Counted from the first letter of the stretch, positions 16,051-23,237 are shown. The stretch is DNA of 64,000 bases from Erysipelotrichaceae bacterium (GCA_015059045.1 SVBD01000004.1:22773-86772), one strand, 5' to 3'. Made by a program: numbers and translations. Notes: generated by a model from the sequence alone, not told the origin.

Positions 16051-16664
16051 AAAGAAATTAAACCTTCTAAAATTTGTTTTTCACTACTAATATCAAATTT
16101 ATTAAACGCTTTAATAGATAAAGAGTATTTATAAATATCGTAATATGAAATATTATTTTCCAAGGCGAAAGATTTAATTATTTGATTAAATTTTTCTACT
16201 CCAATATTTAATGATAAATAAAAATTGTCATAAGAATTTATATATGGATTATACAAAGAAACTAAGGTTAATTTCACTTTATAGTTGTATTCATATATTT
16301 GCTCTACGATATTAAATAAATTAAGTTCAAATAACTCTAATATAGATAATTTAAACTCGAATTTTAATTTATCTTCTTCTAGATAAACACATTTCAATAA
16401 GTCAAATAATCCAATAGAAAGAATTATTCTATTACTATTAGAAATTATTTTGCTTATTTTAGTATTGCTATCATTATTTTCCATATCCTCTTCAATAATT
16501 TTTAATAAAGATTTTGATTCTATTTTTTTAAAGAGAAAATCGGTATTACATAAAGATATTATTTCTTTAGAAATAAACTCATTGCCGATAAAAGAGGTAA
16601 TACTACTTGTTTTACACGACAAAAGCGAAAAGGACAATAGTATTATTAATATAATTTTTTTCAT
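16047..16664 (-). CDS. Lipoprotein, degenerate SGNH/GDSL (YpmR-like) fold
   Basis: Lipobox LLSC; IILSIGLFDLL and LVSLYNPY resemble SGNH blocks III and following; catalytic GDS and DxxH are absent. Confidence 0.55.
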   Translation of the reverse strand: MKKIILIILLSFSLLSCKTSSITSFIGNEFISKEIISLCNTDFLFKKIESKSLLKIIEEDMENNDSNTKISKIISNSNRIILSIGLFDLLKCVYLEEDKLKFEFKLSILELFELNLFNIVEQIYEYNYKVKLTLVSLYNPYINSYDNFYLSLNIGVEKFNQIIKSFALENNISYYDIYKYSLSIKAFNKFDISSEKQILEGLISL

Positions 16665-17902
16665 TGTTCTTTTCTCCTTATTTTTGTATTTATTTTTTTT
16701 AGTTTATTAATGATATCCTCATATCCTCTTTCTAAATATTCTAAGCCAAATACTTTTTGCTTTTTCTCACTAATAAGTGAAGCAATAAGCAAACTCATAG
16801 TTCCTCTTAAATCTTTTCCTACCATTACACCTTCTTTAAATTTTGAATTAGGAAAAATAATAATTTTATTATTAACAACCTCTATATTTGCACCTATTTT
16901 TTTTAATTCTTCTACATATTTATTTCTTGAAGGATAAATTGTATCTTCAATAATAGATATCTTCTTATTTTGCAATAAAAATGCACATAGTAACGGTCCT
17001 AAGTCAGTATTAATATAAGGGTCAACTGACAAGGTTAATTTAACATCTTTATTTAAAGAACTTTTTTCCACAAATAAAGCATTGTCATGATATTCATATT
17101 TAACGCTCATTATGTCAAAAAAACTTAATAGGCTATTTATTGAATTATCATCAACTCCAAGAATTAATAACCTATTTATTGCGGCACCTATTAAAGCAAA
17201 TGTTGCCACTTCCACTCTATCGTAAGGAATAAAATGCTTTATCGGAGTGGAACATCCGCCATAAACAATTAGTTTATTTTCTTCAATTTCTATCAAATGT
17301 CCTATTTTATTTAAGTATTTAATTACTTCCTTAACTTCAAAATCAAAAGATGGATTAACTATTTCGCTTTTACCTTTTATTTGAACCATTGTAAAAAGAA
17401 GATTGATTGTAGTACCAACACTTGGTTTAGGTAAAATTACAACACCAGATTTTAAAGAAGTATTATCAAACGATAAAACGTCATTATTTTCTATTATCTT
17501 AACTCCAACTTTTTTAAATCCTTCTAGATGATAATCAATCGGCCTTTCTTGAAAAGAACACCCTCCAGGATAAGTAAATGAAAGTTTATTAATTTGAGGA
17601 ATTAGTACTCCAAGTAGATAGTAAGAAGCTCTAAGTTTTTTTATTAATTCAAAAGGCAAACCGCTAAATTTAAACTCACTAGTGTCTATTTCTAATACAT
17701 TATCTTTAAACTTAGTTTTAACATTTAGTTGATTTAATATTTGAAGTGTAATTCTAATATCAACTATATCTGGGACGTTTTCATAAATATGAACACCTCT
17801 AGATAATAATGAGGCATATATTAAAGGTAAAGCGATATTTTTCGCTCCAGATATAAAAACCATGCCATCAATAAAACTTTTTTCTATTTCTAAATATTCC
17901 AT
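16661..17902 (-). CDS. murA: UDP-N-acetylglucosamine 1-carboxyvinyltransferase
   Basis: SGAKN, LRASYY, PGGC..RPID (Cys115 equivalent), NTD, DLRG, LERGYE. Confidence 0.88.
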   Translation of the reverse strand: MEYLEIEKSFIDGMVFISGAKNIALPLIYASLLSRGVHIYENVPDIVDIRITLQILNQLNVKTKFKDNVLEIDTSEFKFSGLPFELIKKLRASYYLLGVLIPQINKLSFTYPGGCSFQERPIDYHLEGFKKVGVKIIENNDVLSFDNTSLKSGVVILPKPSVGTTINLLFTMVQIKGKSEIVNPSFDFEVKEVIKYLNKIGHLIEIEENKLIVYGGCSTPIKHFIPYDRVEVATFALIGAAINRLLILGVDDNSINSLLSFFDIMSVKYEYHDNALFVEKSSLNKDVKLTLSVDPYINTDLGPLLCAFLLQNKKISIIEDTIYPSRNKYVEELKKIGANIEVVNNKIIIFPNSKFKEGVMVGKDLRGTMSLLIASLISEKKQKVFGLEYLERGYEDIINKLKKINTKIRRKEQ

Positions 17903-17963
17903 AACTATATTAAAATTATGCTTATACTCAATTTTTTATGTTATAGTAAATTTGGTGATAATC

Positions 17964-18311
17964 ATGGATAAACACAATATATATAAGTTTTACAAAGATG
18001 ATTTAAAAAATAAAGATTCAAAATATAAAAAACTAGCGGTATTAAATTATTTTTTATCCGCTAGTTATATGTTAATAAATTTACTTTTATGGGGATTATT
18101 TTTTATTTCTAAAAATCTATCTGCCCTATTTACTTTTGTCGTTATTTTACAACTAATAAACGCTTATTTTGTTAATATATTAATAACTTTATTAGTGATA
18201 GTAAATTCAATATTACAATATAAGGTAACCAATAATATTCATTCTAAAATTAATATTGGTATATCACTTATCATTTTATCATTAACAACTATAAATATAA
18301 TCTTACTCTAA
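17964..18311 (+). CDS. Small hypothetical membrane protein
   Basis: GGTGA RBS before ATG 17964; three hydrophobic segments. Confidence 0.5.
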   Translation: MDKHNIYKFYKDDLKNKDSKYKKLAVLNYFLSASYMLINLLLWGLFFISKNLSALFTFVVILQLINAYFVNILITLLVIVNSILQYKVTNNIHSKINIGISLIILSLTTINIILL

Positions 18312-19253
18312 ATCCTCATCAATAATAAACATTGGTCTATTTTGACTTTCAATCATAATTCTAGATAGGTATTCTCCAAAGATTCCTAATACCAACAACA
18401 CAATTGATAAACAGAAGAACATACATAAAATTATAGTTAATACTCCAAAATTAAATCCAAATAGGAATTGATTATTTACTAAATGAATAATAAATAAAGT
18501 TAAATCCGCAACTAATCCCATAGATGAAATAAGACCGAAGAATATTGCTAATTTTAACGCCCATTTTAATGGTGAAACTGTACTTGAAACAATGCTATCT
18601 CCCGCTAATTTGAACATCGATTTATAGTTGTAATGAGTTTCACCTTTTGGTCTTTTTGCTCTAACAAATTCAACAGTTGTAGTTTTAAATCCGGCATAAG
18701 GAACTAGGACTCTAAATACACGATTTTTTTCTGGCAAACTATTAATTTCGTCAACTACTTTGCGGTCCATCAAACGATAATTCCCTACATTTTCTGGAAC
18801 TTTAATTTTGCCAGACATTTTGCTAATGATTTTATAGTACCAAGCTGCTGTTGTTCTTTTTAAGAACGAATCTGATTTACGATCAACTCTTTTTGCGTTA
18901 ACAACAAGATATCCTTCTTTATATTTTTCTAATAATTCAAAAATAACTTCAGGTGGATCTTGTAAGTCGGCATCCATAACAATCATTACATCACCTTTCG
19001 CACATTTAAAGCCTGCAGCAACAGCGGCTTCATGGCCAAAGTTTCTAGAAAAAGAAACAATATGAATATCATTGTTCTTCTTTTTATATTCTTTTAATAA
19101 TTCTAACGTTTTATCTCTACTACCATCATTAACGCAAACGATTTCTTTTGTATAGTCTTTAATTTGATTTAATACTTCTTCTATTTTTTCAAAAAATAAA
19201 GGAATCATTTCTTCTTCATTATACATAGGTACAATTAAGGATAATTTTTTCAT
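18303..19253 (-). CDS. GT2 polyprenyl-phosphate glycosyltransferase (GtrB/YkcC/CsbB-like)
   Basis: IVPMYNEE, VNDGSRD, SRNFGH, MDADLQDPP, two C-terminal TMs, QNRPMFII. Confidence 0.92.
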   Translation of the reverse strand: MKKLSLIVPMYNEEEMIPLFFEKIEEVLNQIKDYTKEIVCVNDGSRDKTLELLKEYKKKNNDIHIVSFSRNFGHEAAVAAGFKCAKGDVMIVMDADLQDPPEVIFELLEKYKEGYLVVNAKRVDRKSDSFLKRTTAAWYYKIISKMSGKIKVPENVGNYRLMDRKVVDEINSLPEKNRVFRVLVPYAGFKTTTVEFVRAKRPKGETHYNYKSMFKLAGDSIVSSTVSPLKWALKLAIFFGLISSMGLVADLTLFIIHLVNNQFLFGFNFGVLTIILCMFFCLSIVLLVLGIFGEYLSRIMIESQNRPMFIIDEDLE

Positions 19254-19448
19254 ATACACCACTCTTTTCTTTATTACAAATATTATAGCATTATTATTAA
19301 AAATTGGGTATTAATTAATTCTTTTTATCATATATTATTACCTCTAATGTAATTTGCACAAATTATTTTATATAAATAATCACATAAATGATTATTTCAT
19401 TACTCTTTTTTTATGATATAATAATTAAAAACAAAGGGAGGACAAAAT

Positions 19449-22400
19449 ATGGACTCAACAAATACAATCAATAGTTGGAAAGAAAAGATTAAAGCTAATT
19501 TATTAAAAGAGCACTTTTATAGTTATTCGACTGACGAATCATTTACTTTACCTATTATTAACGATGATACTAATAATCTTTTTGATTTATTGCTAAAAGG
19601 TGAAACATTCATTTTCGGAGAATTAAATGATGTTACATTCATTGGAAAAGCAATGAGTGACTTTATTAACGAACATCAAGGTGTAAACATTTTATTTTCA
19701 AACAAAAATCAAATTAAGCAAAGAGAAATATTAAATAAAATTATTGAGATCAATAACAATTCAATTGCGAATAATTCGTACTCTATTGCTTATCTTTCGT
19801 TTGGGAAAATCACTTATCAATTAGATGGTAAAAAATTCCAAGCCCCTTTAGTTTTTATTCCTGTTAGAGTGTTTAAATCAACAAAGGATAATTATTATCG
19901 CGTTGTAAGATTAAACAAAGAAATTAAATTAAATACTCCATTAATTGAATTATTAAAAAAAGAAAGAAAAATTGATTTATCTTATCCAGTAAATAATAAA
20001 TTCAATTTAGGAGAATACTTATATTACTTATCAGTAAAAGTTAAACCAATTAACTGGATTGTTAATAATGAGAATTTCTTATCTTGTTTTGATTTTTCAT
20101 ATTACTCAGATTTGAAATTCATTAACGAAAACCAAAACATTATCGCCCAAAATCAATTGGTTAAAAGAATTGCTTATTTGAATTCTGAATTCTTCTCATT
20201 CAATCAAAAAGAATCTTTCCCATTAGATACTAAGTTTTTATCTTTATTAGATATGCAAAATGAGGAATATAATTTGTTAAGAACTATTTCTCGTGGTGAT
20301 AATTTATTAATTAGATGTGAACAACATTCAAATAAATATCACTTTATTACCAATGTAATTTTAACTTATTTATTAAACAACAAGCGCGTTCTTTTAGCTT
20401 ATTCAAATAACGAAGAGAAAAATGAACTACTTAATGAAATCAAAAAGAACTCTATTGAAAAATTTACTTTAGATTTATCTTTAGGATCAATTAACAAAAC
20501 TGACACTTTAGCGTCTTTAAGTAGTTATGATAAGTTAGTTCTTCCTTATAATAGTTTACACCCAATCGCAATTGATGAAGATGTAACTAGATACTATAAT
20601 CTTAAAAATTCATTCCAAGAAATCATCAATAGTTTGCGTACAACCAAAAATTCTTTAAATACATCAATTAATAAAATTATTAACAATTACTATGCTTTGG
20701 CAAAATATCCATTATTAGACGTTTCTTTCAAAGCTACAAATAAAATTGATTTAGAAGTATTGCAACAATATTTACTTCTTGTTAAGGAATTTGCAAATTC
20801 AATTGAAGCTTTAAATTGCCCTATCGAAGAACACCCTTTCTATGGATTCAATCGAAAAGTTATGAAGAAAGAAGACTACATACCATTAAAAAATAGCGTA
20901 ATTTCTCTTTCTGCAACTTTACAAGATGCAATTAATATTTATAACTATGGAGTTAAAAAATATCATCTTCCTTCAGTTTCTACCTTAAAGGAAATGAAAG
21001 CAGTCTTAAACATTTTAACTTTCGTAGATTATTATAAAGATCTTCCTATTGATTTTTTAAAGGACGATATTATTGATGAAACATATGATAAACTTAAAAA
21101 TCTATATTTAAAAATTGAACAAAATAATCAAAAATTAGATTCACTATGGGGAAATTATCCTTTACTAAAAAATATTTCTTTAGAGGAATTAGAACAAGCT
21201 AATAAATCAAAGAAAAAGAAAACTGCATATGCGTCTTTAAAGAAAAAATACCAAGTAAAACATCTTTCGACTAATGAATATGGATATTTGTTCGATTCTA
21301 TCTTGTCTTTATTAAGAGTTAAACAAAACTTAGAAGAAATTAAATTGAGTTTTAATCATAGTTACATAGAATTTTTAAGCAATCATACTTTTGAAGAGCT
21401 TAGAGAAATTATTAATAACATTAACAATTATCGTTACAACCTTAATTACTTAAGCGATAAGAGTTCATTTGATATTTGTTATTTAGTTAAAGATACTAAT
21501 ATTGAATCAAGTAAACACCGTCAAGCAATGCAATTAGCATTTAATTCAATTTTATCTAACAGTCAAATCGTCCAAAAATACTTTGACAAAAATGTATTTA
21601 ATTACGAAAAGATTAATTTAGATGTTTATTTAGAAAAAATTAATATGCTATCTTTAAACTTTGCTTCTGTTAATGATTATATCGATTACTATGTATCAAA
21701 ACATAAAATCAACAAGGCAATGAATATGCTTGGAGATAAGTTATTAGAGTGTGGTCATTATTCTAACTTTGAAAATATCTTCTTAAAGAGATTCTATTAT
21801 GACTTATTAACTGCAACACTTAAAAACAAGAAAATGTCAGATAGTCTAAGTAGAAAAAATATCTTTAGTTTATTAGAAAACTTCAAAGATAGCGATAATA
21901 AAAGAAAGAGTTTAATTGAAAAAATTATTTATAATAACTTCTCTAAAAATACAAGTACTACTCTTTACAACATTAAAGCAACCGAAGGAAATGAAATTAA
22001 AAAATTACTAAGTGATGAAAATTATTTCATTAATTTAGATTCTCTATGTGAGCTCTTCTCACAAAGTATTCATAATTTTAAACCATGTGTATTAACAAGT
22101 TATAAAAACGTTTCTTCGTTATTAAATAATAAAAATTATCAATTTGATGTCGTAATTTTATTATCTAATCGTTCAATGAAAATTAGAGACGTTCTTCCTT
22201 GCCTAGTTAAATCAAATCAATTATTAGTAATTGATCAAAAACCATTAACCGAAGATATTAGAAGTTCATTAATTACAAGTTCTAATCCTGCTAATTTAGT
22301 TTTTGCAAGCAAAAATACATTCAACGAAATCGTCTATACTCAAAGAGATCACTCTCTTGCATCGTTAATTCAAAATAATCTATATGATTTAGACTTTAAA

Positions 22401-23237
22401 GCATACTTAGTTGAAAAATTAAATGATTATGGATTTGATGTTGGAATGAATCGTGCATTAAATGACCAAGTCATTGATATCTTAGTCAAAGTTCCAAATT
22501 CTAATTCTTCAATTGCAATTATGGTCGATCACTTCCCTTACTATTCTCCAGAAGAAGCAAGTGAAGCGTTCTATTATCAAGAACAATTCTTAAAAGATAA
22601 AGGATATAGTCCATATCGAGTATTCACCGCTCTTTTCTTCATCGATGAAGAAAATGAATTTAACAAACTAATTGAATTCATCATCGCTCAATCCAAACTT
22701 ATTCCTGAAGCAGCTGTTAAGAAAAATACTATATTGTTGATGGATTACCTTTTCCCATTATTTAAAGATCCTAGACATGTATATTACGAATTAACTAACG
22801 TTAATAAACTAAATGAAAAATTAACTTCTTTCTTAGAAGAATGTGCTCCTATTTCTCTTGATGAAATACGTGTTGTATTTAAAGAGAATATTGAAGAAGA
22901 ACTTAACAATTTAGCTGCAAGCGGATTAATTGAAATTAAAGATAATTTTATTTTATTGATTGGCAAGAAAATTCGTTTTAGAAGAGTAGATAGAAACAAA
23001 GAATTCTATCGTCCTTTAGACCTTGTTAGCGACATTGAATACTATGATGCAATTTACGATATTATCAACTATAAATCTTCGTTAGATAAAGATACAATCA
23101 TTAAAATGATTCTTCTTTCTTTGGGCTATAAGAAAGCAAATAAAGAAAAATATGAGTTTGTCGAAGAAAGAATCGATTATTTATTAGAACAAAAAGTAAT
23201 TTTTATTGAAAATAATATTATTTATAAAAACATTTAA
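19449..23237 (+). CDS. DUF4011 / degenerate SF1 helicase / Vsr-like (MTES_1575) nuclease / DUF3320 protein (Hhe-like), catalytic motifs eroded
   Basis: WKEKI N-terminus, YLSFG..FQAPLVFIPV (DUF4011), PCVLTSY..V..FDVVI (pre-Walker B), and an IDILVK..IAIMVD..Y..GY..YRVF nuclease-like block. Confidence 0.75.
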   Translation: MDSTNTINSWKEKIKANLLKEHFYSYSTDESFTLPIINDDTNNLFDLLLKGETFIFGELNDVTFIGKAMSDFINEHQGVNILFSNKNQIKQREILNKIIEINNNSIANNSYSIAYLSFGKITYQLDGKKFQAPLVFIPVRVFKSTKDNYYRVVRLNKEIKLNTPLIELLKKERKIDLSYPVNNKFNLGEYLYYLSVKVKPINWIVNNENFLSCFDFSYYSDLKFINENQNIIAQNQLVKRIAYLNSEFFSFNQKESFPLDTKFLSLLDMQNEEYNLLRTISRGDNLLIRCEQHSNKYHFITNVILTYLLNNKRVLLAYSNNEEKNELLNEIKKNSIEKFTLDLSLGSINKTDTLASLSSYDKLVLPYNSLHPIAIDEDVTRYYNLKNSFQEIINSLRTTKNSLNTSINKIINNYYALAKYPLLDVSFKATNKIDLEVLQQYLLLVKEFANSIEALNCPIEEHPFYGFNRKVMKKEDYIPLKNSVISLSATLQDAINIYNYGVKKYHLPSVSTLKEMKAVLNILTFVDYYKDLPIDFLKDDIIDETYDKLKNLYLKIEQNNQKLDSLWGNYPLLKNISLEELEQANKSKKKKTAYASLKKKYQVKHLSTNEYGYLFDSILSLLRVKQNLEEIKLSFNHSYIEFLSNHTFEELREIINNINNYRYNLNYLSDKSSFDICYLVKDTNIESSKHRQAMQLAFNSILSNSQIVQKYFDKNVFNYEKINLDVYLEKINMLSLNFASVNDYIDYYVSKHKINKAMNMLGDKLLECGHYSNFENIFLKRFYYDLLTATLKNKKMSDSLSRKNIFSLLENFKDSDNKRKSLIEKIIYNNFSKNTSTTLYNIKATEGNEIKKLLSDENYFINLDSLCELFSQSIHNFKPCVLTSYKNVSSLLNNKNYQFDVVILLSNRSMKIRDVLPCLVKSNQLLVIDQKPLTEDIRSSLITSSNPANLVFASKNTFNEIVYTQRDHSLASLIQNNLYDLDFKAYLVEKLNDYGFDVGMNRALNDQVIDILVKVPNSNSSIAIMVDHFPYYSPEEASEAFYYQEQFLKDKGYSPYRVFTALFFIDEENEFNKLIEFIIAQSKLIPEAAVKKNTILLMDYLFPLFKDPRHVYYELTNVNKLNEKLTSFLEECAPISLDEIRVVFKENIEEELNNLAASGLIEIKDNFILLIGKKIRFRRVDRNKEFYRPLDLVSDIEYYDAIYDIINYKSSLDKDTIIKMILLSLGYKKANKEKYEFVEERIDYLLEQKVIFIENNIIYKNI

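Follow-up and report, generated by a model that had tools for sequence, protein, structure and literature searches.

The sequence considered here is a stretch of 64,000 nucleotides from an Erysipelotrichaceae bacterium (GCA_015059045.1, SVBD01000004.1:22773-86772), hereafter "the window", and the subject of the analysis is a single gene on its plus strand, which encodes a protein of 1262 residues (P0001). The gene is located between a divergent family-2 glycosyltransferase (GT2) gene and dxs; beyond these, uppS and lytB are found on the opposite strand. The original prediction described its product as a full-length but catalytically dead relative of the anti-phage protein Hhe, and we agree with its description of the open reading frame (ORF) as uninterrupted: although the GC content around the locus is only about 25%, no internal stop occurs. 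The features of the gene and the related loci in other genomes are collected in Table 1. Our analysis suggests that the most fitting description of the protein is a pseudoenzyme derived from the ProA (Prometheus)/PDC-S37 branch of the DUF4011 helicase-nuclease superfamily.

Table 1. Features of the gene and its product in the window, and loci in other genomes that lack the gene or carry an active paralogue (AF2, AlphaFold2; pLDDT, predicted local distance difference test; dN/dS, ratio of nonsynonymous to synonymous substitution rates)
Feature	Residues	Position	Strand	Evidence or remarks
Extended -10 promoter element TGATATAAT		19414-19422	+	sequence reading; register kept in orthologous intergenic regions
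Strong Shine-Dalgarno sequence AAAGGGAGG, 6 nt 5' of the ATG		19434-19442	+	GGG core kept in orthologous loci
Whole coding sequence	1-1262	19449-23237	+	1262 codons plus stop
N-terminal DUF4011 domain, retained	1-230	19449-20138	+	PF13195, E 2.8e-12 (residues 27-169); pLDDT ~90; dN/dS 0.08
RecA1-like domain (helicase 1A), first half, without P-loop	231-335	20139-20453	+	hhalign, residue table, AF2 model
Degenerate Walker A	290-298	20316-20342	+	hhalign and residue table
All-helical insertion in the 1A domain, ~525 residues	336-860	20454-22028	+	collinear hhalign; DSSP of model; dN/dS 0.08
RecA1-like domain, second half, with Walker B and motif III remnants	861-935	22029-22253	+	alignment, residue table; dN/dS 0.17 (vs 87% orthologue)
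Walker B remnant FDVVILLSNRS	899-909	22143-22175	+	alignment to FDLVIFDEASQ
Motif III remnant LLVIDQKPL	925-933	within 22029-22253	+	alignment to VVGDSKQ.PP
41-residue linker, stump of the deleted RecA2/AAA_12	936-976	22254-22376	+	hhalign gap; dN/dS 0.03 (vs 87% orthologue)
Restriction-endonuclease-like (MTES_1575/Vsr-like) fold, degraded site	977-1085	22377-22703	+	PF18741, 38.7 bits; model; dN/dS 0.03 (vs 87% orthologue)
C-terminal tail, modelled as two winged-helix domains	1086-1262	22704-23234	+	homology to active tails; AF2; Foldseek; dN/dS 0.06 (vs 87% orthologue)
Natural deletion in genome G022		L073 5120-8601		GT2/P-type ATPase junction
Natural deletion in genome G019		L074 7505-10986		GT2/P-type ATPase junction
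Active paralogues		L027 6179-10738; also L028, L029, L030, L045-L049

To establish the fate of the catalytic motifs, we aligned the profile of the target family (alignment A1, 28 sequences) with that of its active relatives (alignment A2, 18 proteins) using hhalign, and tabulated the residues that are invariant or nearly so in the active proteins in a 45-sequence alignment containing 31 members of the degenerate family. The two profiles are collinear over 1238 columns (probability 100, E 1.3e-75). The Walker A sequence GPPGTGKS of the active proteins aligns with CEQHSNKY (residues 290-297, nt 20316-20339); over the whole stretch G-PPGTGK-SQT is replaced with C-EQHSNK-YHF, i.e. all glycines are gone, with active G292, P294, G295, T296 and G297 corresponding to C, Q, H, S and N. 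A lysine at the family position 296 is present in 21 of the 31 members, and H298 is invariant. The motif Ia residues K322, A325 and L326 are substituted. In the Walker B motif (family consensus FDvvIiLSnRs) D900 persists and no member retains the DE pair, which reads LS in the target; in motif III, a D and a variable residue stand in place of GD. Motifs IV-VI are missing altogether: positions ~1000-1215 of the active template (AAA_12), with all the invariant motif IV-VI residues found at ~1000-1200 in active proteins, fall into a gap. The second RecA domain (RecA2) has thereby lost about 235 residues, and what is left is a stump that can be aligned with the initial elements of that domain. All 31 members aligned to active relatives lack every ATPase motif as well as RecA2, and in none of the 53 unique family sequences examined can Walker A, Walker B or motif III be recognized. 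The replacements of Walker A, Walker B and the GDxxQL motif and the deletion of the second RecA domain, as originally predicted, are thus all borne out. The catalytic residues are restored neither by another alignment nor by the modelled fold, an outcome that the original prediction had named as its refutation.

In superfamily 1 (SF1) helicases both RecA domains and the P-loop are required for ATP hydrolysis and translocation. Because the P-loop and the second RecA domain are both gone here, ATPase or helicase activity of the protein can be excluded with high confidence, as far as it can be judged from alignments. In agreement with this extent of divergence, the profile of the degenerate family finds nothing better than E 0.5 in the PDB, whereas in a control search the active-family profile retrieves IGHMBP2, Sen1, Dna2 and UPF1 with E-values from 2.5e-17 to 1e-11; a search of the PDB with the target sequence returned no match, and none of its relatives has a solved structure. 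Outside the helicase motifs, residues shared with the active proteins are retained: G119, P133, P138, N162 and W203, which are invariant in active relatives, in DUF4011, Y465 and G466 in the insertion, and P1134, R1188, E1197 and G1226 in the C-terminal ~180 residues, which are homologous to the tail of the active proteins.

Matches to Pfam in the target are limited to DUF4011 and to the MTES_1575 restriction endonuclease family (residues 983-1078), the latter barely above the gathering score (cut-off 38.2 bits), and AAA_11, AAA_12 and DUF3320 (PF11784) give no Pfam match in the protein even at E<=1. The DUF3320 assignment made in the original prediction is therefore not confirmed; the C-terminal tail is modelled as tandem winged helices (WH). 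Two AF2 models were analyzed, one of residues 1-1200 (45 aligned sequences, mean pLDDT 87.2) and the other of residues 975-1262 (pLDDT 90.6). In the former, the Walker A site comprises a strand (286-291), a four-residue glycine-free loop and a helix (296-309), i.e. it is predicted to form a RecA-like strand-loop-helix unit that is incapable of making a phosphate-binding loop. The insertion is nearly all helix, and its block HPFYGF (462-467) matches EKxPxYG of the active proteins. Residues 977-1082 are modelled in the alpha-beta-beta-beta-alpha-beta order typical for PD-(D/E)xK nucleases, and the tail exhibits two conserved blocks, FRRVDR...R and KMILLSLGYKK.

Comparison of the 1-1200 model with the PDB using Foldseek identified Upf1-like helicases as the sole meaningful neighbors (probability 0.5-0.9 over ~340 columns). 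Proteins of the SF1B group (UPF1, IGHMBP2, Sen1/SETX, Dna2) are therefore structural neighbors of the target model and sequence neighbors of its active relatives, but their matches to the target are weak (E 0.02-0.2) and confined to the 1A-like half, and the profile of the degenerate family does not detect them. Coiled-coil matches of the same model in the PDB and BFVD (dynein, MukB/JetC, SbcC/SMC) were rejected as noise caused by the helical insertion (TM 0.05-0.1, root-mean-square deviation 30-77 Å). For the 975-1262 model the neighbors include the WH-B domain of cullin/APC2, JetB, SelB, the Hel308 winged helix, and TnsA and AF1548, which combine a restriction endonuclease fold with a winged helix; the E-values are weak, and the pattern is consistent. 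The second winged helix is basic in the degenerate family (median isoelectric point, pI, of 8.9, compared to 6.0 in active proteins). Domain charge was tried as a test for DNA binding and rejected, as it is not discriminating.

The nuclease-like domain exhibits a more complex pattern of retention and loss. Asp1244 of the active proteins corresponds to D1010 of the target, which is invariant in 53/53 unique family sequences, and K984 is nearly invariant. Active D1262 corresponds to D1027, present in 27/31 members, while E1260 is replaced with M, I or V and D1274, R1275 and R1279 (the DR..R motif) are all lost. The sequence IECDG thus becomes IMVDH in the target (residues 1024-1028), confirming the replacement of ECDG with MVDH noted from the window, and the residue following D1027 varies between H, R, S, K and N. 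In one clade (P0020, P0022-P0024 and P0041) D1027 is replaced with N and position 1025 is occupied by E (IELNH or IEFNH instead of IMVDH), which looks like a compensatory swap in a degraded nuclease site. The beta-3 strand accordingly carries one acidic residue nearly always (xxD, or ExN in this clade), with L024 as the member that has none. By these residues the nuclease site has deteriorated, but to call it dead would be too strong: the originally proposed loss of catalysis agrees with the missing E1260 equivalent and DR..R motif, and is at odds with the invariance of D1010, the near-invariance of D1027 and the strong constraint on the domain.

The assignment to Hhe did not survive comparison with family profiles. 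In PADLOC the target has a single match, to the candidate system PDC-S37 (E 5e-55, best stretch covering positions 9-967 of the 1550-position profile), and none to Hhe at E<=1. Among the NCBIfam models ProA (NF058533) scores 139.1 bits against a cut-off of 1500 and Hhe (NF042953) 69.2 bits (E 1.3e-19) against a cut-off of 2000, so that neither threshold is reached. The active relatives from the same order and family, which comprise 1500-1950 residues and the domains DUF4011, AAA_11, AAA_12 and MTES_1575, match PDC-S37 with E=0 and ProA with 1172-1473 bits, a 2195-residue relative (P0031) exceeds the ProA cut-off (2294 bits), and active relatives score higher on PDC-S37/ProA than on Hhe. From these profile scores, the closest family is ProA/PDC-S37 and not Hhe. 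With Hhe (PADLOC PDLC02194) the target shares, at the level of distant homology, DUF4011 and the MTES_1575/Vsr-like fold, in which D1010 and D1027 are kept and the E1260 equivalent and DR..R are lost, but it lacks the helicase motifs and a detectable DUF3320, and its tail is homologous to that of PDC-S37.

The Prometheus anti-phage system consists of one protein, ProA, described in the summary of van den Berg et al. 2024 (Cell Host Microbe) given in PMC13700489 as having four domains and a characteristic insertion in the helicase. The target resembles ProA/PDC-S37 proteins in possessing DUF4011, an SF1/Upf1-like 1A domain interrupted by a large helical insertion, the MTES_1575 fold and the C-terminal tail, all collinear over the full length, including the insertion that the same summary singles out. 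It differs in the absence of Walker A, Walker B, motif III and the whole RecA2, and of E1260 and DR..R in the nuclease, i.e. instead of four intact domains it has a helicase reduced to a P-loop-less half domain and a nuclease with a degraded site; it is also a core gene inherited vertically, whereas the active forms are patchy. Because the summary in PMC13700489 reports all ProA domains to be essential for defence, a Prometheus-like mechanism would be impossible for the target. In the literature searched we found no mention of PDC-S37. A core DUF4011 gene has been reported to flank a defence hotspot in Pseudomonas aeruginosa (PMC10250203).

The gene is maintained by purifying selection. We calculated dN/dS according to NG86, with DNA of close orthologues recovered from metagenome contigs. 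The comparison with an 87%-identical orthologue yields dN 0.078, dS 1.00 and dN/dS 0.08, similar to the neighboring genes in the same pair of genomes (GT2 0.04, the EPSP-synthase-family gene 0.11, dxs 0.12), and every domain is constrained, with a maximum of 0.17. Values of 0.13 and 0.15-0.17 were obtained for a 99% copy (dS 0.035) and a 70% copy (dS saturating), respectively, and the neighbors range over 0.04-0.11 (GT2), 0.11-0.32 (EPSP-synthase family) and 0.12-0.14 (dxs) in the same genome pairs. The original prediction regarded the gene as retained, not decaying, and named frameshifted orthologues or a dN/dS near 1 as signs of decay; the ratios are far below 1, and apart from one copy in an error-prone assembly, orthologues that are not truncated at the end of a contig keep an open frame of 1250-1306 residues, even at 30% identity. 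Decay is thus excluded. The protein is therefore homologous to an enzyme family, lacks the catalytic motifs and evolves under purifying selection, as befits a pseudoenzyme, with the loss of ATPase activity predicted from its sequence.

Upstream of the gene, the -10 element (TGATAnAAT) and the GGG core of the ribosome-binding site keep their register across the intergenic regions of four orthologous loci at a coding dS of at least 1, which argues for a real promoter, although the motif itself occurs in the window no more often than expected by chance (TGNTATAAT, 11 found against 9.6 expected). The same is true for sigma-70-like sites in this AT-rich DNA (29 against 30.4 expected). The promoter-like TG-A-TATAAT and strong ribosome-binding site of the original prediction are hence present and supported by their conserved register. 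The divergent GT2/target intergenic region (19263-19448) contains further ortholog-conserved blocks upstream of the -10 element, e.g. AATGATTATTTCATTAC and ATTATTTTATATAAATAATCA, and a second TGCTATAAT on the minus strand (19282-19290), likely the GT2 promoter; these blocks and TGCTATAAT may be shared regulatory sites.

Analysis of the phylogenetic distribution reveals a gene restricted to, and nearly universal in, one lineage. In the GTDB family of the host, which comprises small-genome gut Bacilli, a family profile detects the ~1260-residue gene in 29/31 genomes and in 5/5 genera, and its copies are full length and stop-free where the contig allows, with the exception of one in an error-prone assembly. 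Among the other families of the order the ~1260-residue form is present in 0/170 genomes, whereas active forms of 1500-2000 residues occur in 47/170, with the patchiness typical for defence genes. The genome of the window (1.44 Mb, 95% complete) has one copy of the degenerate gene and no active paralogue. A search of 1.84 billion representative proteins with a profile of residues 230-1262 gave the same picture: the family comprises 13 clusters of full-length proteins (1249-1306 residues) that score 865 bits or more, and the next matches are active proteins at 245 bits or less, which are split exactly at the point where RecA2 is inserted. All named records come from uncultured gut metagenome-assembled genomes (MAGs) of human and rabbit origin, labelled as Bacilli, Bacillales or Erysipelotrichaceae bacterium.

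In a maximum likelihood tree of 54 sequences the degenerate forms constitute one clade (SH-aLRT 100) on a stem of ~1.04 substitutions per site. The possibility that they arose from an active paralogue of the host family itself was considered and found unsupported, as their clade is not sister to those paralogues in this tree. Identity to the window protein tracks that of RpoB (Spearman 0.74, p 5e-5, n=23 genomes), the target being the faster-evolving of the two (54-57% identity where RpoB has 90-91%). Synteny with GT2, DegV and the P-type ATPase gene is conserved in part, and the surroundings are not those of a defence island. The gene is thus inherited vertically, as a resident chromosomal gene and not as a mobile immune gene.

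The two genomes that lack the gene, G019 and G022, represent related species of one genus, and in both the GT2 gene abuts a gene for a P-type ATPase with a 90-bp spacer, i.e. the target gene has undergone a clean deletion. Both genomes carry an active PDC-S37 paralogue of ~1522 residues elsewhere (L045 and L046). In total, 9/31 family genomes possess an intact, motif-complete PDC-S37/ProA-like helicase-nuclease of ~1520 residues at a different chromosomal site, and about 22/31, the window's own included, have the degenerate gene and no active paralogue. In the MAG G001 both the target gene and the essential rpoB are split, with their pieces lying in different frames (G001:C80:103205-106803 and L075 3302-7127). 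We rejected this copy of the target as evidence of decay, as the splits are likely due to frameshift-type assembly errors.

The original prediction inferred domestication from the proximity of dxs. The inference itself agrees with the dN/dS values of 0.07-0.17, which resemble those of housekeeping neighbors, and with the monophyly of the family and its presence in all five genera; the argument from synteny was rejected, since the adjacency of dxs is limited to the 99% and 70% relatives and was found in no other species examined. The GT2 neighbor recurs in three genera and a convergent DegV/P-type ATPase block in four. Across the loci compared, the target has no conserved partner of a defence type, be it a nuclease, a protease, a TIR protein, a methylase or another. 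We also found that the EPSP-synthase-family gene (MurA/AroA-type, PF00275) and GT2 (window 16661-19262) remain together beside the target in several congeneric species as well as in one further genus, and probably represent a cell-envelope gene pair. A 149-codon ORF on the plus strand (17862-18311), which overlaps the ends of both these opposite-strand genes, is probably a chance ORF in AT-rich DNA.

In order to reconcile these observations, we propose that the target is an exapted, ATP-independent binding or scaffold protein (a "pseudo-helicase/pseudo-nuclease"), a reading for which we estimate a probability of roughly 0.6 from the comparison of sequences. The ancestor of a single family of uncultured gut Bacilli with small genomes would have acquired or duplicated a single-protein defence gene of the ProA/PDC-S37 type, composed of DUF4011, an Upf1-like SF1 helicase with a giant helical insertion, a restriction endonuclease fold and a winged-helix tail. 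On the stem of the lineage the P-loop, Walker B and motif III would have been lost, the whole second RecA domain deleted and the nuclease site partly lost, and because of these losses the protein could no longer hydrolyze ATP for translocation or unwinding. The modules kept and selected would be the non-catalytic ones, namely DUF4011, the helical insertion, the nuclease-shaped fold and the winged-helix tail. Because residues shared with active proteins are kept in DUF4011, the insertion and the tail, and the tail itself has a winged-helix character, we infer that the protein may still bind its ancestral ligand, be it a nucleic-acid structure or a partner protein, independently of ATP, and that its output would be steric or scaffolding, with the protein acting as a scaffold, sensor or blocker.

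Several observations weigh against this proposal. The gene is dispensable at least in the two deletion species, and no conserved partner gene was found among the compared neighborhoods. The nuclease-like domain and the first winged helix are acidic (pI 4.4 and 5.0, respectively), unlike a classic DNA-binding module. The evidence for selection is softened by the fact that a dS of ~1 is near saturation, while the ratio for the 99% pair reflects few changes. Finally, the most constrained part of the protein is the nuclease-fold domain, where D1010, D1027 (or E1025 in the N1027 clade) and K984 may make up a remodelled catalytic site. This raises the alternative that the protein is a motor-less nuclease, with H1028 as a further candidate residue, which still cuts and is targeted by the other domains. 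The invariance of D1010, the almost constant presence of exactly one acidic residue in beta-3 and the recognition of the domain by Pfam, however marginal, speak for it, but most members have a hydrophobic residue in place of E1260, one of three acidic positions that do not vary in active relatives, D1274, R1275 and R1279 are gone, the residue after D1027 is variable, the strand in L024 has no acidic residue at all, and in PD-(D/E)xK enzymes the loss of a catalytic carboxylate normally abolishes cleavage. We thus regard continued cleavage as unlikely.

Somewhat less improbable, though still doubtful, is that the target has remained an immune protein devoid of enzymes of its own, i.e. a sensor or decoy that employs DUF4011, the insertion and the winged helices to recognize a cue from the phage, and then blocks invaders sterically or passes a signal to, or controls, a different effector, among others the active PDC-S37 paralogue. 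Such a role would fit the ancestry in a defence family, the retention of all putative sensing modules and the presence of the active paralogue both in a minority of the family and in the two genomes that have lost the degenerate gene. This co-occurrence, however, concerns two closely related genomes, most genomes with the degenerate gene have no active paralogue to be regulated, no effector is conserved next to it, and a core, single-copy, vertically inherited gene with slow turnover displays the opposite of typical defence-gene dynamics. The remaining explanation, that the gene is a decaying or non-functional remnant whose frame is open by chance, could appeal to the loss of all enzymatic motifs, to the dispensability of the gene in two species and to the frameshifted copy. 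Against it, a frame of 1262 codons is open in a genome of 25% GC and likewise in the uncut orthologues, the dN/dS is 0.08, the promoter and ribosome-binding site are conserved and the frameshifted copy shares its MAG with a split rpoB. Decay is effectively refuted by the distribution and dN/dS taken together, and we consider it extremely improbable.

For the exapted binding protein, the best precedent of a mode of action may be RecC of RecBCD and AddB of AddAB, whose degenerate SF1 helicase folds (in RecC also the nuclease) serve as non-catalytic DNA-recognition scaffolds. The likeness lies in a helicase-nuclease lineage that has lost the ATPase motifs and is kept for binding or recognition. 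The differences are that in RecC and AddB both RecA-like folds are preserved (in AddB together with an active nuclease) and the two proteins act in obligate complexes with active motors, whereas the target has one RecA domain deleted and no evident partner gene, and is not related to them in sequence. We tentatively suggest, as a possibility clearly less probable than exaptation as such, that the family may be the first described lineage in which a single-protein defence helicase-nuclease of the Prometheus/PDC-S37 type, stripped of motor and cutting chemistry, became fixed as a vertical core gene and now takes part in the physiology of the host chromosome or of RNA by reading, independently of ATP, a nucleic-acid structure (e.g. 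R-loops, forks or ends sensed by its ancestors), a free-standing bacterial counterpart of RecC-like scaffolds.

Pseudoenzymes are common as a class, and to our knowledge little has been published about the mechanism of Prometheus and Hhe-type proteins. The family described here is a natural variant that consists of the accessory modules without the motor and so isolates what DUF4011, the insertion, the nuclease-shaped fold and the winged-helix tail do alone; it should also be easier to handle in binding and structural work than enzymes of 1500-2200 residues, and the natural deletions offer a comparison for its role. It represents a clean, datable case of the conversion of an immune gene into a resident pseudoenzyme, with a single origin and a long stem, followed by housekeeping-like constraint across a family-level clade.

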